From Candidatus Babelota bacterium (lineage in GTDB: Bacteria > Babelota > Babeliae > Babelales > Vermiphilaceae): a stretch of 64,000 bases of DNA. Every line of letters starts with the position of its first letter. Position 1 is the first letter of the stretch. This document shows, one piece after another, positions 47,273-61,982 of this stretch. The notes beneath the pieces were generated by a model. It saw only the letters and a program-made list of their open reading frames with translations, was not told the DNA's origin and ran no database searches. The position numbers were made by a program, and so were the translations under genes. Location of the stretch: positions 1 through 64,000 of the forward strand of contig JBMOLF010000009.1 of the NCBI GenBank assembly GCA_049325595.1. Reading direction: 5' to 3'.

Positions 47273-48526
47273 ATGAAAATTACTAAAATAATCGGCCGTG
47301 AAATTTATGACTCCCGTGGTATGCCAACGCTTGAATGTGAGTTGTTTTTAGAAGAAGGATATTCAGTTACCTCATCGGTTCCATCAGGAACCTCTAAAGG
47401 ACAATTTGAAGCAAAAGAACTGCGTGATGCAAAGCGTCTTGGTGGTCATGGTGTTGCAGTAGCTATTGAAAACTTAGAAAATATCATTGCACCTGCGCTA
47501 ATTGGACAAGAGCCAGAAGCTATCACCATGGATCTGCACATGATTGAGCTTGATGGCACTATCGATAAATCAAAACTTGGTGCCAATACTATTTTAGCGG
47601 CAAGCATGTGCATTTTTCGGGCACAGTCTCTAATTGCTGGCGTGGAGCCATATGAATTAGCAGGCCATTTATGTGACTTTAATTCAGTAAGTTTACCATT
47701 TCCTATGTTTAATGTATTAAATGGCGGCGTGCATGCGGATAATGGTTTAATGATACAAGAAATAATGGTTATCCCCGTTGGTGCGCAAAGTTTTAGAGAT
47801 TCGATGGAAGGCGGCTTTGTTGTAAACCAAGAATTAAAACAAGTGCTTAAAGAAAAAAAACGTTCAACCTTAGTTGGTGATGAAGGTGGCTTTGCGCCAG
47901 TTTGTACCGATGAAGAAGAAGCGCTTGATATTATGATGCTTGCCATTGAACGTGCACAGCAAAAAACAGGCTTACGCTATGTATTAGCACTTGATGTTGC
48001 AGCAAGCCAATTTTATGATTATGAAAAACAAACCTATCGCTGGCATGAGCAAACAAAAACAACGCAAGAACTAGTCGATTGGTATGAAAAACTGGCACAT
48101 GCATATCCGCTTTATTCGATTGAAGACGGCCTTGCAGATACCGATTTTGATGGATGGAAAGAGCTTACCAGCCGTCTAGGTGAAAAAATTCTAATTATTG
48201 GTGATGATTTATTTGCTACTAATCAACATCGCATTGTACAAGGTATTGAGCAAGGTCTTGCGACCGGTGTAATCATTAAACCAAATCAAGTTGGTACAGT
48301 TACTGAGACATTGCAAGCAATTAAATTATGCAAAGCGTATGATCTACAAGCTATTGTATCTCATCGATCCGGTGAAACGAATGACACGTTTATCGTTGAT
48401 TTAGTAGTAGGGTGTAGTGTTCCCTATATTAAAGCAGGTGGTTTTTCACGAGGAGAGCGCATGGCTAAATACAATCAGCTCATGCGCATCGAAGACTTTT
48501 TGATGTTCTCGCTGCTAGGTTCGTGA
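47273..48526 (+). CDS. eno: Enolase
   Basis: REIYDSRG, VPSG, NGGVHA, GDEGG, IEDG, GDDLF, IKPNQ, SHRSGET, ERMAKYNQL; ATG 47273 with GGGGAG RBS. Confidence 0.96.
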   Translation: MKITKIIGREIYDSRGMPTLECELFLEEGYSVTSSVPSGTSKGQFEAKELRDAKRLGGHGVAVAIENLENIIAPALIGQEPEAITMDLHMIELDGTIDKSKLGANTILAASMCIFRAQSLIAGVEPYELAGHLCDFNSVSLPFPMFNVLNGGVHADNGLMIQEIMVIPVGAQSFRDSMEGGFVVNQELKQVLKEKKRSTLVGDEGGFAPVCTDEEEALDIMMLAIERAQQKTGLRYVLALDVAASQFYDYEKQTYRWHEQTKTTQELVDWYEKLAHAYPLYSIEDGLADTDFDGWKELTSRLGEKILIIGDDLFATNQHRIVQGIEQGLATGVIIKPNQVGTVTETLQAIKLCKAYDLQAIVSHRSGETNDTFIVDLVVGCSVPYIKAGGFSRGERMAKYNQLMRIEDFLMFSLLGS

Positions 48527-50878
48527 AAAAGGATTTTCTTCAATTTGATTAACAAGATCTTTTAGCTGTTTATCTTTGTTGTCATCTAATTGAGCAGGCG
48601 ATTGTTGAGAAGCAATATGAAAGCTTTCTTCTATGCCTGCTTCATCTAAAAGATCTTTTTCATACGCATCGGCTGCTATTTCAGGGTCAGTTGCCAAGTA
48701 TTGATCGACCAATGCCTGCGATGGTTCCCTCGTTGGTTGGAAGAACCAGCGCGTAATCGGATCACGAAGATTGTCAAAGATATAGTTTTCATTGCTGTAG
48801 TTTTGAGCAATTTCAACATAATCTTTGGTCATTTCACTAATGCCAGCACGCAAACGTGGCTTAATAATAGTTGGCGAAATAAATACCGTTAAAAAGGTCT
48901 TAGTTGCAGCACTGCTTCTGCGTTTAAAGAACCAACCCAAAATAGGAATTTGGCCGAGTAATGGTGTTTCATTTAAGGCATCCAGCATATCAATTCGGGT
49001 AAGTCCGCCCAATGCAAGTACGCACCCATTTGCAACATTAGCATTGGTTATTACTTTACGGGCAAGGCGGTTTCCATCAGATACATTAGCAGACGTAAAT
49101 TGTACGATGTCCACTTCTATGTGAAGGTTTACCGTATTTGCTGAACTTATACGTGGGGTAATACCAACAGTTAATTGTGCTGGAATCCATTTACGTGTTG
49201 CATTTATAGCACCACCAGAAGAACCTGCAGCCGCGTCTTGTAAAAAGCGATCTTCAGTTACCGTGATCATTGCTTGCTTGTTATTAATTGCAATTACGTG
49301 TGGGTGACTTAAAACCTTGGTATTATCAAGCAATTTTTGAATTTGCAAGATTCCCCAGGTTTGTCCGCTATTAGGATCATTAAATGCAACTGCCATTGAT
49401 CCCGGACTAAAAAAACTTGCCGCACTGCGATTATCCCCGCCCGGCGTTGTGGGAGGATAGGCATTACGCAATAGATCAGATTGAAGGGTATTTGCCGGAG
49501 GCACCGTATTTTCATTAAGTAAAATATTTGGTGTTGTTTGCGCTGATTGGAAATTCACTAAATGCGGGAATGGTAATTGTGCTGGGTTCCGAATCGAGCT
49601 ACCAAGTAATCGAACATCATTTAAGGTTAAATCAGCAATTAAAACTTGCAGCATTACAATGTCTTGCGGGCGATCAACTTGCTCAATAAATTTTTTGATA
49701 TATTCCCAATCATCAGAACGTGCTGCAATAATTAAGTTATTATTACCAGCAAATTTACCCTCTGCCGCTTCTTTATTACCAAGATTGAGTGTTTTATCGC
49801 TTTTTACAATAACACTTTGTAAAAGGCGTTCAGGACCACCTTCTGTCGCTTCGCCACCTCGTGCTTGCTCAGGTCCGCCACCGCGCTGGCCTTTAATAAT
49901 TGACTCAAGAACAGGAACAAATGAATCAGCATCTAGGTATTGTAATTGATACACATGCAAAATTGATTTACCCGTACCGATCTCTACATCGATATATTTC
50001 ATTATAAAATCTTTGAGTCGCTCAACTGCTTGTGCGCGCCCCCTTAAGATAATTGAATTGGTGCGAGGTACGGCTGCAACGGCAACAGGTTGAAAATAAG
50101 TACCTTCTGGTTTTTTACTGCCGGGTAGCTTGTTTGGCTCAACGGTTACTTGTAACTCTTTGAGAATTTGATCAACAACAAATGAGGCTTGTACAAAATG
50201 TAAACGCAATACTTCTAGTGTTTCTTTGTAGGTTGTTTGATCGAGTGCATTTAAAATTTGAATTGCTGCGCGAATATTACTTCCTCTATCGGTTATTAAA
50301 AAACTATTAGTAGCAACATCAACTTTAATATCTGCTTTGAATAAGGCGCTATCAGATAAAACATTTTTTAATATAGCAAGCAATTCGCTATCGGCTGCAT
50401 CAGATGCGCGAATGTTTGATAAATAGTGTAAGTATCGAACTGGTTGATCAGTATCGGGGGGCAATACACCAACATACAGTGGCAATGATTCACGAATAAG
50501 ATCAGGTGTAGTTTTTATAATTTGATAATTTCCTGCGTGAGGAACAATGTTGTACCCAGCGATATTAAGAAGTGTTTGAAAAATGTCCCATGCTTCAGAC
50601 AACGTTAATTTTTCTTCAATATGTAAGGTTACTTTTTGATTAATAGGTTCTTTTGGCAAGACGACATTAATTCTTTTTTCAGCACTCATTAAGTTGATGA
50701 TATCAACCAGATCTTCATTATCAAAATAAAAGCTAATTTTTCTTTTGCGATTTTTCTTTTGTTTACCATTAGGCTTTGCAGAAATTTTTTCATTCAATGC
50801 GCTTGGATGAAAAATGCTTTTTATATCTTCTGCCCATACTGTATTGCTTAAGAGAATTATGATAAATAAAAAAATCAT
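48515..50878 (-). CDS. gspD: Type II secretion secretin GspD (paralogue 2)
   Basis: Signal; N0 (FYFDNEDL), N-domain repeats (PRTNSIIL, NNNLII), secretin domain (SHPHV, ITPRIS, ALGGL, PLLGQIPILGWFFK). Confidence 0.9.
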   Translation of the reverse strand: MIFLFIIILLSNTVWAEDIKSIFHPSALNEKISAKPNGKQKKNRKRKISFYFDNEDLVDIINLMSAEKRINVVLPKEPINQKVTLHIEEKLTLSEAWDIFQTLLNIAGYNIVPHAGNYQIIKTTPDLIRESLPLYVGVLPPDTDQPVRYLHYLSNIRASDAADSELLAILKNVLSDSALFKADIKVDVATNSFLITDRGSNIRAAIQILNALDQTTYKETLEVLRLHFVQASFVVDQILKELQVTVEPNKLPGSKKPEGTYFQPVAVAAVPRTNSIILRGRAQAVERLKDFIMKYIDVEIGTGKSILHVYQLQYLDADSFVPVLESIIKGQRGGGPEQARGGEATEGGPERLLQSVIVKSDKTLNLGNKEAAEGKFAGNNNLIIAARSDDWEYIKKFIEQVDRPQDIVMLQVLIADLTLNDVRLLGSSIRNPAQLPFPHLVNFQSAQTTPNILLNENTVPPANTLQSDLLRNAYPPTTPGGDNRSAASFFSPGSMAVAFNDPNSGQTWGILQIQKLLDNTKVLSHPHVIAINNKQAMITVTEDRFLQDAAAGSSGGAINATRKWIPAQLTVGITPRISSANTVNLHIEVDIVQFTSANVSDGNRLARKVITNANVANGCVLALGGLTRIDMLDALNETPLLGQIPILGWFFKRRSSAATKTFLTVFISPTIIKPRLRAGISEMTKDYVEIAQNYSNENYIFDNLRDPITRWFFQPTREPSQALVDQYLATDPEIAADAYEKDLLDEAGIEESFHIASQQSPAQLDDNKDKQLKDLVNQIEENPFSRT

Positions 50879-51438
50879 GTTGCCTCACGAGCCAATGGTG
50901 GTAATAATGTGGCAATAGTTAAGGTTGAATTAATTGTTTGTGGATTTTTTTCTGAGCGGGTAATTTCTAGGTCTTTTATGTAAAGCCTATTGGTTTGTTC
51001 GATTGTTGATAAAAATTGTGCAAGTTGTTTCATGTTAATACCGGCTAAGGTTACTTTCTCAGCTTGCTCACGATAATTATCTTCAACAACAGTAGTAGTA
51101 AATTCTCCAGAGGTAAAATTTTGTTCTAAGTTTAGCTGTTTGGTAATATCTCGAATAAAACCATCTATTTTAAACTCAGGGTCTTGCGCTAAAATTGCAT
51201 CAACTGCTTTACGTTGTTGCTGCACTTTTTGTGCTTTTTGTAAAATTTCACGCGTTTGCTCGCGCGCTTCATTAATAATATTAATGTGTCTGGTAGCTGA
51301 TGCTATGCCCCAAAAATAATTTATTACTAACAATAGAGCGATAAGAAAAATAATACCCCAATACACAACAATGTATCTGATAAATGATCGTTCATTTAAG
51401 TTTTGAATGAATTCTTGTATTTTTTTTATAAGGGTCAT
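50875..51438 (-). CDS. gspM: GspM/PilO-like inner-membrane platform protein
   Basis: LNER before a single TM, coiled coil, then VTLAGINMKQLAQFLSTIEQ..LYIKDLEI; position in operon. Confidence 0.75.
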   Translation of the reverse strand: MTLIKKIQEFIQNLNERSFIRYIVVYWGIIFLIALLLVINYFWGIASATRHINIINEAREQTREILQKAQKVQQQRKAVDAILAQDPEFKIDGFIRDITKQLNLEQNFTSGEFTTTVVEDNYREQAEKVTLAGINMKQLAQFLSTIEQTNRLYIKDLEITRSEKNPQTINSTLTIATLLPPLAREAT

Positions 51439-53063
51439 GATTTCTCCTGACCGTTTTTAAGCAATCGAATAACAATAGTAAACTGTGGCTCTTTGCCTTC
51501 TTCTATGAGTTTAAATAATTTCGATTTTTTTAAATCGCGTTCGAGATTTTTTAATGCCTCATAATCGTTTACTTTGCCTTGCAGAGTAAGAATACCATCT
51601 GCAGAAAAAGTAATTTTTTCAAGATCTAGACCTAGAGCTTCTTTATCAATTTTATCAGTTAGCTCCAAAAGATATTTTAAATATGAAGTCCGAGCAGTGG
51701 TTAAAACAGCAAATCGTCTTTCTTCATCATTAACTGCGCGCTCTGCTTCAGCGATTAAGTCATCAAGGTCGGTTACTTCTTCTGGGATTTTAGGGAAACG
51801 CTCTTTAAGCGTTTCAATCACTTCTTCTTGAGAGGTATACGCTTCATTATGCAAGCGACGCAATCCAGCAAGACTAAAAATTAATAATGAGCCAATGATT
51901 AAGAGTGATAAAACAAGGCTTACTAATAATTGTTTGGAAAGCTCCCAGGTCGAGGCGGTTGCAAATTCTTCTTTGCGCACATTAAAACGTGCCATACTGG
52001 TATTGGGCAATGCTACTGCTAGACTGACCACATTGTCATCGGGGAAATTATTTTTTGCTGATATTGAAATTCCTGTTTGGGAAATTGCCTGATGGAGGTT
52101 AAAAACATTAGTAGCAACCTGCAAGTGTTCAGAAAAATAACCAAGCATACCCTTTAAATGTGCTGTTTGACCAAAAAACAACAACGAATCCATCGATTCA
52201 TGCTCAAGCGCTGTAAATGATTTAATAGTAAAATCTATATCTTTTGCAAGAGTTGCAAAGCCAGAATCAATTGCTTGGGCATAAGTATCGGTATGAGCAT
52301 GCTTTTCTAGGCCGTAGCGTAAGGTATAATCCAGTGCTTCGGCTATAGAAATATGTAATTGCTCACTTGCTAATTTGGCGACATCATAAATTCCTTTGGG
52401 CAGTGTTCGCATTGCTCGTAACTGGCCGCGTTGAATATAGGCCATTCGGGTTCCTTGAATGCCAATTTCAATCAAGGTTACATTTTCATTAAGTGATCGA
52501 TAATAAGGTAGTGCGGTATACAAACCATAAAGGGCAAGCAAATCGATGGTAATTTTTTGAGGACTAATTCCTGCTGCTTCAAATAATGCCAGATGATGAG
52601 CAATATGTTGCTTTTGTACAGCGACAATAAGTACTTCAACACTTTTTTCGTCAGGTAATTGTTTGGTAATAACAAAATCGACGACCGCATCTTGAATAGG
52701 AAAGGGCAGTAATGGCTCAATTTCATTTTGAACAACTCGCGCAATCATATCATAATCAGTAAAGGGAAATTTTAGTTCTTTAAAGATTGTTTGTGCGCTA
52801 CTCATAGAGCTATAAACCGCTTGATAACGAGCATCAATCGAATCGATAATTTTTTTTATTGCAGAGCTAATTCGACTATCGTTATCATTACCATCGGTGA
52901 CATCTAATTGTTCTTGAAACCATTTTTCAATTATTATGTTACGACCTTTTGCTAATATTTGGGTAGCGGTAACATGGGTCTTGCCGATATCAAATCCAAT
53001 AATGCGCGTTGGAATTACATAGTAATTGCGAATTTCCTGCGGGATAAATAGATCTTTAATCAT
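51435..53063 (-). CDS. gspL: GspL-like protein (PilM-like actin-fold domain + TM + PilN-like domain)
   Basis: IGFDIG, ELKFPF, EIEPLLPFP..VVDF, AAGI, IEIG; TM near residue 385; LTLQG..YEAL..L..S.LF. Confidence 0.82.
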   Translation of the reverse strand: MIKDLFIPQEIRNYYVIPTRIIGFDIGKTHVTATQILAKGRNIIIEKWFQEQLDVTDGNDNDSRISSAIKKIIDSIDARYQAVYSSMSSAQTIFKELKFPFTDYDMIARVVQNEIEPLLPFPIQDAVVDFVITKQLPDEKSVEVLIVAVQKQHIAHHLALFEAAGISPQKITIDLLALYGLYTALPYYRSLNENVTLIEIGIQGTRMAYIQRGQLRAMRTLPKGIYDVAKLASEQLHISIAEALDYTLRYGLEKHAHTDTYAQAIDSGFATLAKDIDFTIKSFTALEHESMDSLLFFGQTAHLKGMLGYFSEHLQVATNVFNLHQAISQTGISISAKNNFPDDNVVSLAVALPNTSMARFNVRKEEFATASTWELSKQLLVSLVLSLLIIGSLLIFSLAGLRRLHNEAYTSQEEVIETLKERFPKIPEEVTDLDDLIAEAERAVNDEERRFAVLTTARTSYLKYLLELTDKIDKEALGLDLEKITFSADGILTLQGKVNDYEALKNLERDLKKSKLFKLIEEGKEPQFTIVIRLLKNGQEKS

Positions 53064-55633
53064 GTATTAATCCCTTTGGTTTGTTCATCATTAAAGAGTT
53101 CCACTAATGATTTTTTAGTCGTTGATTGCGCTAATGATCGTGTTCTTGGCATGCTAGCAGCAGGAGTTATACTTTTTGGTTGCTCAATGGTTGCATGAGC
53201 TAAATCGATCGGTCTTTGGGATCCTATTGGAGGCAAAGGTGGCTCGGGATTTACCGGACAATTATTATTCTTACGTTGGAAAATGAAATCGTCAGCCGCG
53301 CGTTCAGTTCCTTCACGACTTGGTTGGAAGAATAATAGATCAACTGGGTCGCGCTTTTGTGAAACATCACGCATGTCATCAGTGGTTAACTCGTACGCAT
53401 TAATATGTTTTTGAGTAAATTGTTTTATCGAACTTTGATCAAACGGCTCAATAATGGTTGTTGATATTAAGATCAGAAGATCTTGTTTTCGTTCTGCCTG
53501 GCGCTTATTTTTAAATAACCAACCAAGTACCGGAATATCGCCTAAAATTGGCACTTTAGAAACGTTATTGGTAACCGTGTTTTGAATCAAACCACCAAGT
53601 GCAATAACTTCTCTATTTGCAGAAATGGTAGTTGTGTTAATTTTTCGGGTAATACGTGCGGCATTCACCGGATCAGCTGCAGTGATAAAGTTTGAGAGCT
53701 CAATACCAAGGTCAAGTACAATCATGCCATCGGAGTTAATCTGAGGGGTAACATTAATTTCGAGCTTAGCAGTTTCATCACCAAACGTATTTGCTGTAGC
53801 ATTACTAATAATTTGGCTGGTAATCAAACGACGAATTTCACCAAGTGTTACGGTTGCTTTAGTTTTATTAGTTGCAACAACAAAAGGGTTTGAAACTACT
53901 TGTGTATTGCTCACGGTTTGCAACAACTGCAATATTGCCCATACGTTAAGATTATCCCCAAGAGAAATAACGGTATTACCAGCAGGTGCAAAGTTCACCA
54001 GACTTAATAAATTTCCTAACAAACGATTGGCTCCAGGTCCGAACGTGTTTTCTACGATACCTTTGGCGGCACCACCAGCGCGTAAGCCTGATGTTTGAAA
54101 GTCAACATTGTATCCTGTTAATCCTTCAACTCCAGGAACACGCGTTCTTATTTGTGCACCGAGCTCTTTTGTGTTTACTAAATCAACAAGTAAAATGAGT
54201 ACTTCTACGGCAACCTGACGTTGTGGAGCGTCAAGCATTGCAATAATGTCTTTTACTTTCAAAAAGTCTTCATAATCAGCGCGAACAACTAATTGGTTTC
54301 CTTCTGGTTCATGTACAAATGTCATAGGTTTGAAAAATTTGTCGCCATCACGAACAGCGCCAAATGCAGCTTGCGGCCCTGTTTGCCCCAGAGTTGTAAC
54401 ACTATTCATAATGTTAGCGATAGTGCGCGCATCAGCATAGCGCATTTTAATGACATGAATGGGAGAATATGGTTGGGTTAACTCGACGTCAATAAATCGA
54501 GTAATAAAATCTTCAATTTTTTTAATACCTTCTGCAGAGCCTAAAATAATTAATGAATTAGTGCGCGGTTCTGCAAAAATTTTGGTTCCTTCAGGAAAAT
54601 ACTGACCGGTTGGTGTTCTGCGCCCAGGGAATAATCGAGCCGTTACACTTTGACGATCTTCTTCAGGATTAAGTTGCTTATAAAGTTTTGCAACATCCAT
54701 GGCATCTGCGCGACGAAGTTTTAATACCGACATTGCTTGTGGAGCATTAGCTTTATCTAATTCTTTGATGATCTGCATTAAGCTTTTAATATTATAAGCT
54801 TTATCAGTTATCACGAGTGCTCTTAGTTCTTGTAAAATCACTACAGCAGATGATGGACTACGTAATCCCGGCTTGTTTTCGTCACCAATTAATGATCGAA
54901 GCGTATCAGTTGAAATATTGTCATAAAAATATACAAAGCGAACCATTTCATCGCTGTCTGGCAATGTTTCAGCAGGTACACCAATAAAGGCCGGAAGCGG
55001 CATTCGCCGTGCATTTTCAACCGCCGTAATGCGCATAACACGCGGTGTTGGCTCCGGAACAATTGCAAGGCCTGCAATAGACAAAAAGGTATTAAAAAGA
55101 TTCCACGCAGCTTTTCGCGTTAAAGGCTTTTCTGTTTTAAAAGAAATTTTATTTCCTTTAATTGGACGTGACAATGCTCCTTGTGCGCCAGGAGTTACCG
55201 TATCATCTGTAATAAAGGTAACGCCGTAAATATCTTCTATTTGTTTTACCAGTTGTTCAAGGTCGGCATTTTCAAAATAAAATTCAATAAGTTCTTCTTG
55301 CTCAGGCAATTGAATTTGAGGTTCTTCTATGGGTAATTCTTTTTGGTCTAATAATTTGTGTGCTTGTTCGGTAGGGCTTTCTTTATAGCCTTTATCGACT
55401 AATGGCGGTTGCTCTGGTACCGGAGCAGTAGGTGCAAAAACAGGATTTTCAGCTTTTACTTCAGGTATTGCTGGTTCACTTGATAATACCGGTTTTGCAT
55501 GCTCAACAGGCTTTGCTTTTTTTGTGCACAATTCTTCTTGCTGTGGTATACAATTTTGTTTTTTAGCGCATGATGGAGTAATGCCAATGAGTGTGAGTAA
55601 GAGCCACGCTAAAGGAATACGATATAAATTCAT
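53060..55633 (-). CDS. gspD: Type II secretion secretin GspD (paralogue 1)
   Basis: N0 (FYFENADL), EPRTNSLII, LDAPQRQVAVEV, SNPFV, VTPQIN, ALGGLI, KVPILGDIPVLGWLFK; Pro-rich N-terminal extension. Confidence 0.93.
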   Translation of the reverse strand: MNLYRIPLAWLLLTLIGITPSCAKKQNCIPQQEELCTKKAKPVEHAKPVLSSEPAIPEVKAENPVFAPTAPVPEQPPLVDKGYKESPTEQAHKLLDQKELPIEEPQIQLPEQEELIEFYFENADLEQLVKQIEDIYGVTFITDDTVTPGAQGALSRPIKGNKISFKTEKPLTRKAAWNLFNTFLSIAGLAIVPEPTPRVMRITAVENARRMPLPAFIGVPAETLPDSDEMVRFVYFYDNISTDTLRSLIGDENKPGLRSPSSAVVILQELRALVITDKAYNIKSLMQIIKELDKANAPQAMSVLKLRRADAMDVAKLYKQLNPEEDRQSVTARLFPGRRTPTGQYFPEGTKIFAEPRTNSLIILGSAEGIKKIEDFITRFIDVELTQPYSPIHVIKMRYADARTIANIMNSVTTLGQTGPQAAFGAVRDGDKFFKPMTFVHEPEGNQLVVRADYEDFLKVKDIIAMLDAPQRQVAVEVLILLVDLVNTKELGAQIRTRVPGVEGLTGYNVDFQTSGLRAGGAAKGIVENTFGPGANRLLGNLLSLVNFAPAGNTVISLGDNLNVWAILQLLQTVSNTQVVSNPFVVATNKTKATVTLGEIRRLITSQIISNATANTFGDETAKLEINVTPQINSDGMIVLDLGIELSNFITAADPVNAARITRKINTTTISANREVIALGGLIQNTVTNNVSKVPILGDIPVLGWLFKNKRQAERKQDLLILISTTIIEPFDQSSIKQFTQKHINAYELTTDDMRDVSQKRDPVDLLFFQPSREGTERAADDFIFQRKNNNCPVNPEPPLPPIGSQRPIDLAHATIEQPKSITPAASMPRTRSLAQSTTKKSLVELFNDEQTKGINT

Positions 55634-55638
55634 ATTTT

Positions 55639-56745
55639 TTACTCGGTGTTAGATAACATATTTTGTATTGGCCGCTTCCCTTTTTCCAACATATTTTTTC
55701 TTTCTCTGGCCCTCAATTCATCAATTGTTGGTGCAAATGTTTCACGTTCTTCAAGTCGTTTTAATTGCTCTCTTGTTATTTGATCTGCCGTTCTTCTTTG
55801 GGTGTCTCGTGCTGGCGGCTTGGCAATAGTATCACGCAATTCGTAGTAAATGGTGGTTTCTCTGCCATTTCTTATTACTTTAACTGGAATTGTTCGATTT
55901 GTCTTTAATGTAGTAAGTTCTTGGTAAATAGTAAAACGATTTGCCGTAGTTGTTGCCGGAATATCGTTAATAGCAATCACCATATCGCCACGCTCTAAGC
56001 CTATTGCAGCAGCAAGTGACGGAGGGTTTATCGTGCCAATACGACAGCCAATGCTAGCCCCTTGACTATACACACCAGTTAAATCAAGCATATCGATAAA
56101 TTGTGCAAGGCTATGAACTCTGCCAGCAAATTCATGTACATTTACCATAAATTTATTTGATGAAATAGGTTTGATAACAGATGACCAATCTTCAATAAAC
56201 GTATAAGCAGGATCTGATTTTGCATCACGTTCTTTAAGGTACAATACTTCTTGCTGGCCATTAGAACGTAAGAATATAACTTTATTACTCATAATCCGAA
56301 TAAGTTGTGCATCTTCAATACGATCACCAATTTGATAACTGGATTCTTGTCCAGTTGCATTGTCGGCAATAATCGCTCTGTTTCTTGTGTCATCATGAAC
56401 AATCACAATTATGCCACGCAACGTTATAGCCAGTGGCTCTTGAAATTGCGGCTTGGGCTCTTCTGGTTTGTAGATAGGATGCGGCGCGGGTGGCTCGGGT
56501 GCAACTGCCGTGAATGTTGGCACGCGCTCAATAGGCGCTTCAGGAATTACTGTATTGAATAAATCATTTTGGTATATTTTACTCAAATTAATTTGCGCAG
56601 ATGTTGTAGTAATTGGCTTTACATACTCGACAGGTACAATTTCTTCTCGCTCGGGAATAGATATAGACGAAAAGAGCATAAATCCGAGTACAGAGATAAA
56701 AAGGAAAAGGAGTGCGCTGTTTAAAAGCCAAAATGGTTGTCTCAT
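55639..56745 (-). CDS. gspC: Type II secretion protein GspC (TM, HR domain, PDZ)
   Basis: N-terminal TM, LRGII..RAII..Y.IGD.I.DA.L..I..NKV HR domain, GLERGDMVIAIND PDZ. Confidence 0.88.
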   Translation of the reverse strand: MRQPFWLLNSALLFLFISVLGFMLFSSISIPEREEIVPVEYVKPITTTSAQINLSKIYQNDLFNTVIPEAPIERVPTFTAVAPEPPAPHPIYKPEEPKPQFQEPLAITLRGIIVIVHDDTRNRAIIADNATGQESSYQIGDRIEDAQLIRIMSNKVIFLRSNGQQEVLYLKERDAKSDPAYTFIEDWSSVIKPISSNKFMVNVHEFAGRVHSLAQFIDMLDLTGVYSQGASIGCRIGTINPPSLAAAIGLERGDMVIAINDIPATTTANRFTIYQELTTLKTNRTIPVKVIRNGRETTIYYELRDTIAKPPARDTQRRTADQITREQLKRLEERETFAPTIDELRARERKNMLEKGKRPIQNMLSNTE

Positions 56746-57984: not shown

Positions 57985-58509
57985 ATGATTCTTTCTGGTA
58001 AAGAAATAAAAAATAAATTAGGCAAACAGATTATAATTGACCCATTTAATGAAAAACAGCTTGGCCCTAATAGTTATAATTTGCGTCTTCACAATGAATT
58101 AATGGTATATGAAGATCCTATTTTGGATATGAAAAAAAAGCATGCAACTAAATCCTTAATTATTCCACCAGAAGGTCTTGTATTAGAAACGGGTAAATTG
58201 TATTTAGGAAGAACAATGGAATACACTCAAACTGACGAGTATGTTCCTATGCTCGAAGGTCGTTCTTCAATTGGTCGTCTTGGCTTGTTTATTCACATCA
58301 CTGCTGGTTTTGGCGATGTTGGATTTAATGGTTTTTGGACACTAGAAATTTTCTGCGTACAACCAATTCGTATTTACCCAGGCGTTGAAATTTGCCAAAT
58401 CTTCTATCACTCAATAGAAGGCGCATATGAGCGTTATTCGAGTAATAAATATCAAAATAATCGCAGCATTCAAGCAAGTATGTTATATAAAGATTTTGAG
58501 TTGTTATAA
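57985..58509 (+). CDS. dcd: dCTP deaminase
   Basis: MILSG, PNSYNLRL, GRSSIGRLG, TAGFGDVGF, TLEI, ICQI, KYQ. Confidence 0.95.
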   Translation: MILSGKEIKNKLGKQIIIDPFNEKQLGPNSYNLRLHNELMVYEDPILDMKKKHATKSLIIPPEGLVLETGKLYLGRTMEYTQTDEYVPMLEGRSSIGRLGLFIHITAGFGDVGFNGFWTLEIFCVQPIRIYPGVEICQIFYHSIEGAYERYSSNKYQNNRSIQASMLYKDFELL

Positions 58510-58534
58510 AACATAACAATAACGGGTAAATACT

Positions 58535-59191
58535 ATGCTTTTTAAGTATCCAATATGGTTACTGTGTTTTTTCTCTTGTCTTAACAGTATGGAAAAAAAT
58601 CCAGCCATATATGATTGGAGTATGTTTAAAACTGATTTAGAAAGAAGAGCAAAAAGAGCAGAGCATATGTTTGCTTGTAGGGATACAGTAACAGCGTCGA
58701 TTTTAATGGAAAATGCCTTTAATGATTGTTGTGCATTTAATGTTGTAGATCAAGCAAGCAAACAAGATCAACTCAAATGTTCAAGCGCGCTAGCATTGAG
58801 GGCAGGATTGTTTGCGCGAGCCAATTATGATAATGAAAAAGCAGTTAGTTTTTTTCAATATGCAGCGGATAATTTTCCAGAAAGTGCAATAGGTTATGAG
58901 GGCTTCTATTGCCTGGGTGCAATTTATTTAGAGAAAAATAATTTAGAATTAGCGAAAAAACATCTACACGGTGCATACGAAAAATGGTTTCCAGAGCTCG
59001 ATAAAGGGCCCGTATTGTTTAGCTTGGGCGAACTGTATCAAAAAAAAGGAAAATTAGCTCAAGCAAAAAAATTTTATCAAGAATGTCTAGATGAAGCTCA
59101 AGATTATGACGTCCAAAGACTAGCTGAAGGTGCACTCCAATTGCTAGAAGGAACAGTTTGTAATGCAAATATATCAAGAAATAAAAGATAA
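58535..59191 (+). CDS. Secreted tetratricopeptide-repeat protein
   Basis: Signal then MEKN; YCLGAIYLEKNNLELAKK and FSLGELYQKKGKLAQAKKFYQECL TPR motifs. Confidence 0.8.
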   Translation: MLFKYPIWLLCFFSCLNSMEKNPAIYDWSMFKTDLERRAKRAEHMFACRDTVTASILMENAFNDCCAFNVVDQASKQDQLKCSSALALRAGLFARANYDNEKAVSFFQYAADNFPESAIGYEGFYCLGAIYLEKNNLELAKKHLHGAYEKWFPELDKGPVLFSLGELYQKKGKLAQAKKFYQECLDEAQDYDVQRLAEGALQLLEGTVCNANISRNKR

Positions 59192-59426
59192 ATTTTAAAC
59201 AAAAGCATCCATAATTACTTCTTGCTTATTGTAAAGCGGAAATTGTTGGATTATTAATATGAAATGGTTTTTATAGTTTATTTATCATATTGTTTGTTAA
59301 TGTTTTAACTGACTGCTCAGAAAAAAATGCCGACCTATTTTGGTCGGAGTGTCTAAAATTGGCGCAAGAATATTTGATGGCTAAGTGGAAATTTTATTAA
59401 TTTTGTTTCTAAAAAAGGATTTTAAG

Positions 59427-60074
59427 ATGTTACGCATGCGCTTTTATTGTTTACTTGTAGCATTAATAAGCACTAATCTATGTATAGCCATGGAGTATGA
59501 TGATATTAATAAAACACTGGAGAGACTTTACGATACAGCGCGTAATCTTAAAAATCTTAATACGCATGACCAATTTGAATTGTTTAATGAAACATTTGAA
59601 CTTTTTAAAATGATAAAGCATGATCCTGAAATAGAATTGATCAAACAAGAACATCTAGCACATCTTGCTTTTAGAGCCGCGACAATAGCTTTTTTAGATA
59701 ATAGTGAGATTGATAGAAGTATTCCGTTGTATAGCTTTGTAGTACATTCTGATGCGCCGACTGATATTCGTTCTGCTGCTGCACTTTCTTTAGCGAACAT
59801 ATATTTACGTAAGAAAAAATTCATAGCAGCTGAATTTTATAACGCGATCGCTCAGAAAAATTGGCCTCAAGAAGAAAGTAAGGGTTTTTTATTTTTATCT
59901 AAAGCACGAGTACAGTTTGCAAAAAATAACTTGGCAAGTGCACAGTCTCATTATGAATTATGTATGCAAAATACTGATGAACCAGACATCGTAGAGAGTG
60001 CATTAGAGGAATTATCTGTTTTGAAAAAAATGAAACAAAATGATAATAAGAACTGCAAATGTATTATTCTTTAA
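59427..60074 (+). CDS. Secreted TPR-like protein with C-terminal CaaX box
   Basis: Signal ending CIA then MEYD; TPR-like helices alignable with the upstream gene; ends NCKCIIL-stop; AAGGA RBS before ATG 59427. Confidence 0.8.
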   Translation: MLRMRFYCLLVALISTNLCIAMEYDDINKTLERLYDTARNLKNLNTHDQFELFNETFELFKMIKHDPEIELIKQEHLAHLAFRAATIAFLDNSEIDRSIPLYSFVVHSDAPTDIRSAAALSLANIYLRKKKFIAAEFYNAIAQKNWPQEESKGFLFLSKARVQFAKNNLASAQSHYELCMQNTDEPDIVESALEELSVLKKMKQNDNKNCKCIIL

Positions 60075-60280
60075 AAAGCATGTTTTTTATAAAATCTCCT
60101 ATGATCTAAAGTAATTACGAAATCTAAAAACAAGAATTTTTATTTGCACAATAATAAAAAAAATGCTCATATAAATAACACATAAATATATATTGATAAA
60201 TAAGCAATCAAGTTACCAAAACTATTTATACAGGCGCCTTTTGCTTAGCAATATCATGTAATTTAAACAAGGAAGAACGT

Positions 60281-60520
60281 ATGGATGAGCAAGACAAAAA
60301 ACATACCCAAGCCTTAAAAAAAGATGCAGATCTTATTAGTTTTGACCGTTGTCGTTATTTGCATAAGCGAAAAGAAAAAGAGTTAAGAACTCGTGCCTTA
60401 ATAGGAGCATTGTTGGCAGGAATTTTTGGATTTTGGCTAGGTTATCTTGCAAGAGATAAAAACTTAACACGTTGCTTATTGCCAGGTAGTGCTCCTGCAA
60501 CTATCACTGCACCATATTGA
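60281..60520 (+). CDS. Small single-TM hypothetical protein
   Basis: AAGGAAG RBS; hydrophobic ALIGALLAGIFGFWLGYL helix. Confidence 0.6.
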   Translation: MDEQDKKHTQALKKDADLISFDRCRYLHKRKEKELRTRALIGALLAGIFGFWLGYLARDKNLTRCLLPGSAPATITAPY

Positions 60521-60528
60521 TTATTGGA

Positions 60529-61356
60529 TTAGTTCTCTCTCCACTCATAGATGGTATTGTTATGGTGCACTGCCCATACGGTGCCATCTTGAGCTACTGT
60601 AATCGCTTTAAATCCCTTGAGTGATCCTTTTAAATCCCACTTTTGAGTGGTTTTGTTCCATTTAAATGCAAATAATTGTTTAGGTGTTTCTCCTTGCAAG
60701 GACCAAATGTCTTTTGCGACTCCAGTTGCTAATTTAAAAATGCGAGGCCCAACTTGTTGTGTTAACAATCGCCATAGTTTTGTCTTAGGGTTCCATTGTT
60801 TTAATTTAATAAATAAGGTTGTTTGGCGGCCTTGTCCAATAATTTCTTTTTCTACAGCCCAAATAAAACCTGAGCTATCAACCGCGAAATCTGAAACATT
60901 AGTAAGGTCTGATAAATGCCAAATGTTTTCACTTTGCGCATTTAATATGCGAATAATGGCATTTTTTATAATGAATATATCTTGTTCATATGGTAAAAAA
61001 TTAATAATTGGCTCTTTACTCTCAAAGCGGTAAATGGAAGAAATTTGTTGATTAAAAAAAAGCAACAACTCTTGAGGATCGGCTTGAGTGAGTAAAAATA
61101 ATGAATCATCTATGGCCTGCATTTTTAAAATATCGTGCTCAAGCATTCTTGCCTTGATCCACTGTGTTCCAGTCCACGTAAAGAGTGTCGGCTTATCAAA
61201 TTCATTTATTTTAGTAAGAAGGTAGCCGGTAGTAGTTTTATAGCGGGTAATATCTTGAATAATTCCTATTACATTCTTGTTTGCATCACTTGTAACCCAA
61301 TTTCCTTGTAAGGTAAAAACACAAGAAAGAAAAGCAAGCAATTCTTTATATTTCAT
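60529..61356 (-). CDS. Secreted beta-propeller protein with tectonin-like repeats
   Basis: Signal; repeated Trp-containing blades such as FAVDSSGFIWAV and KAITVAQDGTVWAV..NTIYEW. Confidence 0.62.
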   Translation of the reverse strand: MKYKELLAFLSCVFTLQGNWVTSDANKNVIGIIQDITRYKTTTGYLLTKINEFDKPTLFTWTGTQWIKARMLEHDILKMQAIDDSLFLLTQADPQELLLFFNQQISSIYRFESKEPIINFLPYEQDIFIIKNAIIRILNAQSENIWHLSDLTNVSDFAVDSSGFIWAVEKEIIGQGRQTTLFIKLKQWNPKTKLWRLLTQQVGPRIFKLATGVAKDIWSLQGETPKQLFAFKWNKTTQKWDLKGSLKGFKAITVAQDGTVWAVHHNNTIYEWREN

Positions 61357-61508: not shown

Positions 61509-61982
61509 ATGAATCGGATCGTATTACCAAGCTTGCTAGCAATAATTATTACGCTGGGTTGTAGTGTGATCAGTTATGCTTTGATGATTGAGTACTGCGC
61601 AAATGCCTCAAATAAAGAATTCTTTTTTGAGTTAAAAAATAAAAGTAATCAAGATGTAGAGTTTATTTTATATGTCGATTATATACCAATTACGCATTCT
61701 CGCATAAAAAAAATGAGAAGTGGCAAAACTCATTTAATTCGTATTGGGGATATTGAAGCTGAAAATTCTCTTTCTTTAAAAATATGGCCTGTTGGACAAT
61801 ATTATAAATCGCAGCATTATCAATTTCCGCTAGATAAAACGATTTATATTAAATATAAAAATAACGTGATTCAACCACAAAAGGGCTCAGCCAAAGGTAG
61901 AACTAAGTCAGGGTTGTCATTAGCTAACAATATTTCAGACAAAGACATTATGAGATGGCAGCCAACCCCGCCCAAGTTTTAA
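61509..61982 (+). CDS. Secreted hypothetical protein, 'FELxNK...PQxG...GxxLxxNV' family
   Basis: Hydrophobic N-terminus; FELKNKS, IQPQKG, TKSGLSLANNI; GGAGG RBS. Confidence 0.78.
   Translation: MNRIVLPSLLAIIITLGCSVISYALMIEYCANASNKEFFFELKNKSNQDVEFILYVDYIPITHSRIKKMRSGKTHLIRIGDIEAENSLSLKIWPVGQYYKSQHYQFPLDKTIYIKYKNNVIQPQKGSAKGRTKSGLSLANNISDKDIMRWQPTPPKF

Follow-up and report, generated by a model that had tools for sequence, protein, structure and literature searches.

A gene at positions 59427-60074 (plus strand) of a 64,000-nt window of Dependentiae (TM6/Babeliales) DNA encodes a 215-residue precursor that begins with a Sec-type signal peptide and ends in CIIL, a CaaX box of the geranylgeranyltransferase I (GGTase I) type. 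We propose that this protein is probably an effector that is exported through Sec and the type II secretion system (T2SS) and geranylgeranylated in the cytosol of a eukaryotic host. The window is contig 9 of genome G000 (1,286,077 bases in 24 contigs, 95% complete, 34.7% GC; genomes of the order span 0.8-1.7 Mb), and coordinates given without a contig name are positions in it. The original prediction, made from the DNA alone, was of a host-membrane-anchored effector; the conservation of the tail among orthologues and the genome-wide count of such tails both support it, while prenylation and delivery are the parts that we infer.

The precursor and its C-terminal tail

The gene product is identical to P0001. 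Its ATG start codon follows a Shine-Dalgarno-like AAGGA (59415-59419, plus strand, read from the sequence) with a 7-nt spacer, and the frame ends in TAA. Residues 1-21 (59427-59489), composed of MLRMR, FYCLLVALISTNL and CIA, can be divided into the n-, h- and c-regions of a Sec signal, and the residues at -3 and -1 are small. The signal peptide that had been proposed is thus recognizable by inspection, judged by eye with these rules, as are the general features of a Sec/signal peptidase I precursor, and a Peptidase_S26 protein is encoded in the genome. The predicted mature protein starts at Met22-Glu23 (59490-59495). Two homologues described below have junctions of their own, SWA↓AE in P0003 and SWG↓SE in P0005, and an AlphaFold model of the target shows the signal-peptide region as a low-confidence helix. 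A longer frame starting with GTG at 59385 is the less likely reading, because the independently called orthologue P0002 also begins MLR(I)RF. We rejected a lipoprotein reading, as the family has no consistent lipobox; LSSC occurs only in P0005.

At the other end, the codons TGT ATT ATT CTT TAA at 60060-60074 close the frame, so the terminal CIIL of the original prediction stands, with the CaaX box Cys212-Ile-Ile-Leu215 at 60060-60071. The C-terminal sequence of the protein is KKMKQNDNKNCKCIIL. Its last residues read NCKCIIL-stop, which bears out the second Cys and the lysines that had been noted ahead of the box. This upstream cysteine is Cys210 (60054-60056), and the Cys pair is preceded by a basic stretch, KMKQNDNKN together with K200 (60024-60053), that is variable in alignments. 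Ras and Rho tails (H-Ras, which ends CKCVLS; RhoB, Ral and G-gamma) likewise carry basic residues, an extra Cys or both before the CaaX box. X = Leu leads to geranylgeranylation, and X = Ser, Met or Gln to farnesylation.

Conservation of the tail within the protein family

We looked for relatives in 5.8 billion clusters by word index, in 1.84 billion representatives exhaustively with HMMER, and then with a profile. The word-indexed search returned P0002 as the sole orthologue, HMMER added P0003 and P0004, and P0005 was found by the profile search. P0002 is 87% identical to the target and ends KKCNCAIL. P0003 shares 27% identity with it across 171 residues (E 3e-14 in the pairwise comparison), aligns through its last residue and ends KKSCCFLL (fuller end, KNKQKKSCCFLL), and P0005, at 24% identity, ends KKSCCFLV (fuller end, KTKQKKSCCFLV). 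All three have a Sec-type signal peptide. The Cys at -4 and the second Cys are retained in 3/3 of these non-self, end-to-end homologues, which answers the orthologue check that the prediction had called for; Cys210 and Cys212 are invariant in the four-member alignment, and a basic patch and an aaX end are also kept in all three homologues.

The tail is retained in the part of the gene that changes fastest. The bodies of the target and P0002 are about 95% identical, and about 11 of their last 25 residues differ, with an indel in addition. In contigs from two other runs, 132 and 126 bases are skipped and 118 and 112 unrelated letters stand in their place at 59996-60129, whereas the body shows only point changes; contigs from runs X2-X4 extend over the gene body but lack this tail, another sequence standing in its place. 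None of the 10 runs listed was an RNA run. What is exchanged in related strains is a cassette-like hypervariable tail made up of the final ~25 codons together with 55 nt of 3' flank (59996-60129). The allele of this stretch in P0002 still ends CNCAIL. Because the tail both diverges between orthologues and is replaced wholesale, the retention of a basic-Cys-(x)-Cys-a-a-[L/V] pattern concerns the most rapidly changing part of the gene.

Further searches extended the family little. A search of 40 relative genomes gave nothing real (two matches at E ~0.1), a genome-contig scan with the target gave 59 pattern matches and no relative, and a metagenome-contig scan with P0003 found only a 1093-base contig carrying the C-terminal end of P0003 itself. 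No eukaryotic homologue of the target was present among the 1.84 billion representatives.

An excess of terminal CaaX motifs on secreted proteins of G000

We counted terminal CaaX motifs in 1402 open reading frames (ORFs) of at least 50 aa from G000, called with a simple caller and filtered for overlaps. The control was the same motif at 29 shifted positions, with Poisson p values. The motif C-[AVILMTSC]-[AVILMF]-X ended 13 ORFs, against a mean of 3.6 at the shifted positions (p 1e-4), and C-a-a-L ended 6, against 0.31 (p 1e-6). Among 571 signal-peptide-like soluble ORFs, the former motif was found at 9 termini against 1.2 expected (p 5e-6), so the over-representation of signal-peptide proteins with a CaaX end that the prediction implied is present in this genome.

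The carriers are mutually unrelated, save for one family of three paralogues. Apart from the target, they are an orphan of 362 aa with the end NCPRCIIL, an orphan of 104 aa with CTIL, a protein of 122 aa with KKKKKRRNKICLVI, a WD40 protein (Pfam) with CLLM, and three divergent paralogues of 125-133 aa (23-32% identity, no Pfam match) that end CTIL, CAIL and CTIQ. The paralogues form a cluster at C15:101998-104586 of G000, and their counterparts at C1:533808-534715 of G001, a genome of the same genus, end CTIL and CSIQ. As it occurs on TPR, WD40 and orphan proteins, the tail appears to be a portable module.

Signal-peptide proteins with Cys at -4 carry a mean of 2.9 Lys or Arg residues at -14 to -5, compared with 1.4 in all signal-peptide-like ORFs. 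Among the 11 G000 signal-peptide proteins with a conserved Cys(-4), three of which are paralogues, every one of the 11 has L, I, M or Q as X; the last-residue background of the prenyl-acceptor set defined a priori (A, C, S, M, Q, L, F, I, V) is 0.46. The a2 residue is I, L or V in 9/11, against a background of 26%. The spectrum of tails (X and a2) fits the preferences of eukaryotic prenyltransferases. Given its conservation in the family and across genomes and its excess in G000, the terminal tail looks selected rather than accidental.

Conservation of CaaX tails across genomes

We compared G000 with G001, of which 1.2 of 1.22 Mb was used, through 946 reciprocal-best pairs. Of the 229 pairs with less than 50% identity, 9 have Cys at -4 in G000, and 8 of these retain it in G001. 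Elsewhere between -1 and -15 (14 positions), the same pairs have 41 Cys, and 7 are retained (Fisher p 9e-5). Pairs with Cys(-4) in both genomes (G000/G001) include CLLM/CITM in the WD40 protein (31% identity), CLVI/CIII (38%; fuller tails KKKKKRRNKICLVI and KKQHKKTKCIII), CTIL/CTIL (37%), CTIQ/CSIQ (42%), CHSQ/CQTL (39%), CDLQ/CLLQ (28%) and CMGI/CMGI (48%). A NamZ-like housekeeping enzyme provides a chance control, because it ends CKLL in G000 and its G001 orthologue, at 66% identity, reads QIVLL. Of 80 family genomes, G000 and G001 alone contained members of the C15:170568 family.

We also examined a second genus, g10, represented by G010 and G088, with 800 kb of each genome used and about a third missing. 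None of the CaaX candidates of these two genomes had a partner among their 261 reciprocal-best pairs. At the level of families, g10 family 1 ends CLCIIS, CTCIVS, CSCTIS, ICIIS and KKCILF, with the Cys kept in 5/5 members at 34-42% identity; of the 7 members of family 2 whose 3' ends are complete, 5 have the tails CTIL, CAIL, CVIQ, CTIQ and CTIQ; and family 3 ends CTIL in 2/5 members. A protein at G010:576585-576911 with the tail HCSCTLL had no homologue in 10 other g10 genomes. Because presence is mixed within families (loci L250-L263), the CaaX tail appears to have been gained or lost repeatedly and not to follow vertical inheritance alone. On this sequence evidence, the candidate tail occurs well beyond the genus of the window.

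A TPR-like body with a disordered terminus

The original prediction also described TPR-like helices. The TPR-like character of the helical-repeat body (about residues 74-208, 59646-60050) is weakly supported, and no Pfam TPR family matched above its gathering score: TPR_16 reached 16.8 bits (E 0.0099) against a cut-off of 32.7, and TPR_21 reached 15.0 against 25.5. When a six-sequence family profile was searched against PDB, the top of the list held TPR proteins only (E 1.2e-4 to 7e-3), with matches to Naa15, IFT88, CDC16, CpoB/YbgF and designed CTPRs and a best E of 1.2e-4.

An AlphaFold model built from the six-sequence alignment (pLDDT 80.2, pTM 0.75) consists entirely of helical hairpins, with helices at residues 74-90, 92-106, 112-128, 132-145, 153-165, 169-181 and 186-208. 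An earlier model from a two-sequence alignment had a pLDDT of 46.6 and was too poor to use. Foldseek against PDB gave TPR domains as the best matches (best E 6.3e-3, TM ~0.5-0.6), none of which reached E 0.001. The model shows disorder over the final 6-7 residues, so the CaaX box would be accessible to a transferase.

Secretion machinery and genomic context

A type II secretion cluster, identified by Pfam matches, lies on the minus strand at 48515-56745, 2.7 kb upstream of the target gene, and is the presumed route across the outer membrane. It comprises GspC (55639-56745), GspD (53060-55633), a PilM/GspL-like protein (51435-53063), GspM (50875-51438) and a second GspD (48515-50878). Two T2SSE ATPases are encoded elsewhere in G000, and the genome has Sec and signal peptidase I. 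In this 95%-complete genome, we found no homologue of VirB4 (type IV secretion system, T4SS) or of FHIPEP (type III secretion system, T3SS, or flagellar). An Rce1-like CPBP protease (PF02517) was likewise not found in G000, and the same search was positive in 11/14 control genomes. A prenyltransferase beta subunit was not found either; this negative says little, because the same search matched none of the 14 control genomes.

Signal peptides are common on the eukaryote-type proteins of this phylum. G000 has 51 Ank_2 matches in 28 ORFs, and 25/28 have signal-peptide-like N termini by our heuristic, which matches published figures for Dependentiae. According to the available part of the Babela report, 79/126 ankyrin proteins have signal peptides and the T2SS is the only secretion system detected (PMC4378268). 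The corresponding part of the Chromulinavorax report gives signal peptides on 44% of coding sequences and 78% of ankyrin proteins (PMC6561590), and the TM6 core is described as including the T2SS and two gspD copies (PMC4776705, in part). Release through Sec and the T2SS into the host cytoplasm is a hypothesis already published for this phylum, as set out in the available parts of both papers (PMC4378268, PMC6561590).

The T2SS cluster lies directly upstream of a MoxR ATPase gene, dcd and a small island of genes for secreted orphans to which the target belongs. A paralogue-like TPR protein of 218 aa is encoded upstream of the target (58535-59191, plus strand); it has a signal peptide (...CLNS↓MEKN) and no CaaX box, is 24% identical to the target (E 1.2e-4; E 1.7e-8 with the family profile) and scores at about the cut-off for Pfam TPR_2/TPR_8. 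A signal-peptide orphan of 275 aa adjoins the target (60529-61356, minus strand) and has a sub-threshold match to a Tectonin beta-propeller (E 0.0065). Another at 61509-61982 (plus strand) has no Pfam match. An Rfam scan of the window found a tRNA and nothing else. A promoter and terminator scan of 58300-60600 gave nothing above shuffled sequences except one hairpin, the GC-rich CCGACC...GGTCGG at 59330-59347, which separates the TPR paralogues. On the minus strand, where no gene ends, this hairpin scores as a terminator, and it is the sole terminator-like site in that region.

A methionine at the signal peptide junction

Met-Glu or Met-Asp directly follows the hydrophobic segment in 78 of the 571 signal-peptide-like ORFs of G000, compared with a background of 0.67%. 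The junction logo is [A/G/S]↓M-[E/D]-K-N (e.g., C15:101998-104586 and C7:34826-38765). This class includes the target (CIA↓MEYDD, 59487-59495) and a further 7 CaaX proteins, the Met junction is present in at least 8 of the 28 ankyrin ORFs (e.g., C10:41247-43705 and C7:34826-37929), and the upstream paralogue has the junction NS↓ME (58586-58594). We rejected Met22 as the true start, since a Shine-Dalgarno-like motif precedes the junction Met in 1/78 cases and the signal-peptide start in 47/78.

Between G000 and G001, the junction M[DE] is kept in 21/36 pairs, and Met-Gln, Met-Asn or Met-His is found in at least 6 more. The class evolves fast and recurs, enriched, in G001, G010 and G088. In the g10 families the junction is Met-Ile, Met-Leu, Met-Thr or Met-Ser; because the residue after Met varies there, the constant feature is the Met itself. 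It may mimic the N terminus of a normally initiated eukaryotic protein, reflect a preference of this phylum's signal peptidase or be a retained ancestral start codon.

Discussion

Proposed route and mode of action

The following route would account for the features of the protein. The signal peptide would take the precursor through Sec, and signal peptidase I would cut after CIA to leave a mature protein starting Met-Glu. The folded protein would then leave the periplasm through the T2SS encoded nearby or, less likely, in outer-membrane vesicles or by lysis, and would arrive in the host cytosol, directly if the bacterium is free in the cytoplasm. There, host GGTase I would prenylate Cys212 of CIIL, geranylgeranylation being proposed because X = Leu, after which the host would remove -IIL and methylate the new end. 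The basic stretch and Cys210 would together supply the second membrane signal, a role known from the hypervariable regions of Ras and Rho; on the model of H-Ras and RhoB, we take Cys210 to be a possible palmitoylation site. Held by its lipid anchor, the TPR module would sit on a host membrane, facing the cytosol, and bind a host partner there.

How directly such a protein would meet the host enzyme depends on where the bacterium grows. In the available part of its description, Chromulinavorax has entered the cytoplasm of its host within 3 h (PMC6561590), and for a bacterium free in the cytoplasm in this way the route would be direct. Babela growth, in turn, is described as taking place within a single vacuole in the accessible text (PMC4378268). 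Because a CaaX box is useful only in the presence of eukaryotic prenyltransferases, which are in the host cytosol, the tails add independent sequence evidence for a route from Sec to that compartment.

Evidence that weighs against a prenylated effector

Several observations count against this proposal. The weakest link is that, with vacuolar growth as in Babela, a T2SS substrate must still cross the vacuolar membrane; a Sec substrate also enters the oxidising periplasm first. What the data show directly are the sequence features, how well they are conserved, their excess across the genome and the presence or apparent absence of secretion genes; removal of the signal peptide, dependence on the T2SS, entry into the host cytosol, prenylation and the partner of the TPR module are inferred. 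The target family is tiny, with 3 relatives in the 5.8 billion clusters and 1.84 billion representatives. A profile search of 261 Dependentiae genomes found it in G000 only, apart from one weak match (E 1.1e-4) in a 507-aa frame, and G001, of the same genus, has no target homologue. The two remoter TPR relatives, P0004 (E 4.5e-4) and the paralogue in the window, have no CaaX box.

The wider evidence is uneven as well. By simple counting, G000 alone has a strong excess: G001 has 6 terminal motifs vs a shifted mean of 3.5 and, in 800 kb each, G010 has 5 vs 2.5, neither significant, and G088 a modest 8 vs 3.1. The G000 counts themselves come from a crude ORF caller and a signal-peptide heuristic under which 571 to 706 of the 1402 ORFs counted as signal-peptide-like. 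Among the conserved tails, CHSQ, CDLQ, CQQQ and CMGI are poor classical CaaX boxes, and the box is not universal within families, being absent from 2/7 and 3/5 members of two g10 families. In g10 pairs with less than 50% identity, Cys(-4) was kept in 0/2, although at least one of these two pairs is a false match, because a third of each genome is missing.

Alternative explanations

Since the periplasm is the first destination set by the signal peptide, the tail could in principle act in the bacterial envelope, as an undescribed C-terminal lipidation or sorting signal or as a disulfide or metal site of a surface or periplasmic protein that the host never prenylates. Tails such as CHSQ, CDLQ and CQQQ, which are conserved and not classical CaaX boxes, would suit such a role, and a precedent exists. 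In the part of the MYXO-CTERM/myxosortase work available, Cys-based sorting is combined with CaaX-protease-family enzymes and a T2SS; like the target, the MYXO-CTERM proteins have an N-terminal Sec signal and an invariant Cys near the C terminus, and the T2SS is implicated in their final export (PMC11980579). [quoted passage not shown] The identity of X and a2 points to eukaryotic prenyltransferases instead, and the tails are borne by modules of eukaryotic type, TPR and WD40. The upstream basic patch and second Cys, moreover, follow the Ras/Rho pattern. On balance, we regard an envelope function as unlikely.

A tail that works on the host side without prenylation, through S-palmitoylation alone, electrostatic binding or a Cys metal or redox site, would explain why the two Cys and the basic stretch are the most conserved features, why aaX varies (IIL, AIL, FLL, FLV) and why non-aliphatic residues follow the Cys in some proteins of the same genome. 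It would leave unexplained why Cys stands exactly at -4 in 8/9 divergent pairs, which is true of no other terminal position, as neither palmitoylation nor metal binding needs that exact spacing; it also fails to predict the strong bias of a2 and X to prenyl-acceptor residues, and we give it little credence. A third alternative is chance: the CIIL of the target could be a functionless ending in an AT-rich genome rich in Ile, Leu and Lys codons. The very small family, the NamZ-like CKLL that is a clear chance case in the same genome and the non-significant excess in G001 and G010 are all compatible with it. Yet Cys-x(0-1)-Cys-a-a-[L/V] is terminal in 3/3 end-to-end homologues down to 24-27% identity, C-a-a-L is found 6 times in G000 against 0.31 expected, and Cys(-4) persists in 8/9 divergent orthologue pairs. 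An accidental origin is thus very improbable, and prenylation by the host remains our preferred interpretation.

A broader possibility is that these bacteria, equipped with Sec and a T2SS only, run an effector programme of signal-peptide proteins in the host cytosol in which both ends are directed at the eukaryote, with a CaaX tail and a mature N-terminal Met. About 80 proteins per genome have [A/G/S]↓Met, mostly as Met-Glu or Met-Asp, and once cleaved they would resemble eukaryotic proteins with ordinary initiation. We consider this combined scheme unlikely. One of its end signals, a modular, Ras-like CaaX tail for host prenylation, is fairly well supported by the sequence comparisons. The other, an N-terminal Met selected for, e.g., N-terminal acetylation or escape from N-degron recognition, is speculative and is partly contradicted by the g10 families with Met-Ile and Met-Leu junctions.

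Comparison with known systems

The disordered C-terminal stretch of the target, with basic residues and an extra Cys before the CaaX box, resembles the hypervariable regions of Ras and Rho, and the g10 tails CLCIIS, CTCIVS and CSCTIS closely resemble that of H-Ras. Unlike Ras and Rho proteins, the target is bacterial, carries an export signal and has a TPR-like body instead of a GTPase domain.

The closest functional parallel is with AnkB and the other prenylated effector proteins of Legionella (Pels), in which an amoeba-associated intracellular bacterium likewise makes proteins with a eukaryotic CaaX terminus. Several unrelated proteins per genome carry the box in both cases: Legionella has 7 to 11 Pels according to the available part of one account (PMC13081727), and about 9 to 12 candidates are found here. 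The target, P0002, P0003 and P0005 share the Pel tail, with Cys(-4), two mostly aliphatic residues and an acceptor X, and the motif is conserved and over-represented in G000, with an excess that is not significant in G001 or G010. The expected outcome would also be the same, namely that the host farnesyl- or geranylgeranyltransferase would anchor the proteins to host membranes, on their cytosolic side. Delivery differs: no Sec signal peptide is present on the Legionella CaaX proteins, and they are injected by the Dot/Icm T4SS, on which their localisation depends (PMC13081727, in part, for the T4SS dependence), whereas all candidates here are of the Sec type and, in place of the T3SS or T4SS of which VirB4 and FHIPEP would be markers, a T2SS lies beside the gene. 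Prenylation has been shown experimentally in Legionella, while that of the target is predicted. No Legionella protein turned up in any search, so there is no sequence homology to the Legionella effectors.

Within the phylum, the ankyrin proteins of Babela and Chromulinavorax similarly combine a Sec signal with a eukaryote-type module (PMC4378268, PMC6561590; both in part). In contrast to the target, these proteins are presented in the available text of both papers without CaaX boxes or prenylation, and the string "prenyl" is absent from that of PMC4378268 (the Chromulinavorax paper is PMC6561590). Our literature search, with subscription-only literature outside its scope, found nothing that links Dependentiae with prenylation or CaaX boxes; for the combination of CaaX, type II secretion and signal peptide, it returned the myxosortase work and a review.

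Significance

To the question of how Dependentiae manipulate their protist hosts without an injection system, the published answer has been that they secrete signal-peptide proteins into the host cytoplasm, a proposal based entirely on which domains these proteins contain. Recurrent CaaX tails on proteins with Sec signals make this cytosol-delivery hypothesis directly testable. The tail would also provide a simple criterion with which to pick host-cytosolic effectors from among hundreds of orphan secreted proteins. If the proposed route is correct, the hijacking of host lipidation would extend from pathogens with a T3SS or T4SS to a phylum that has only a T2SS.

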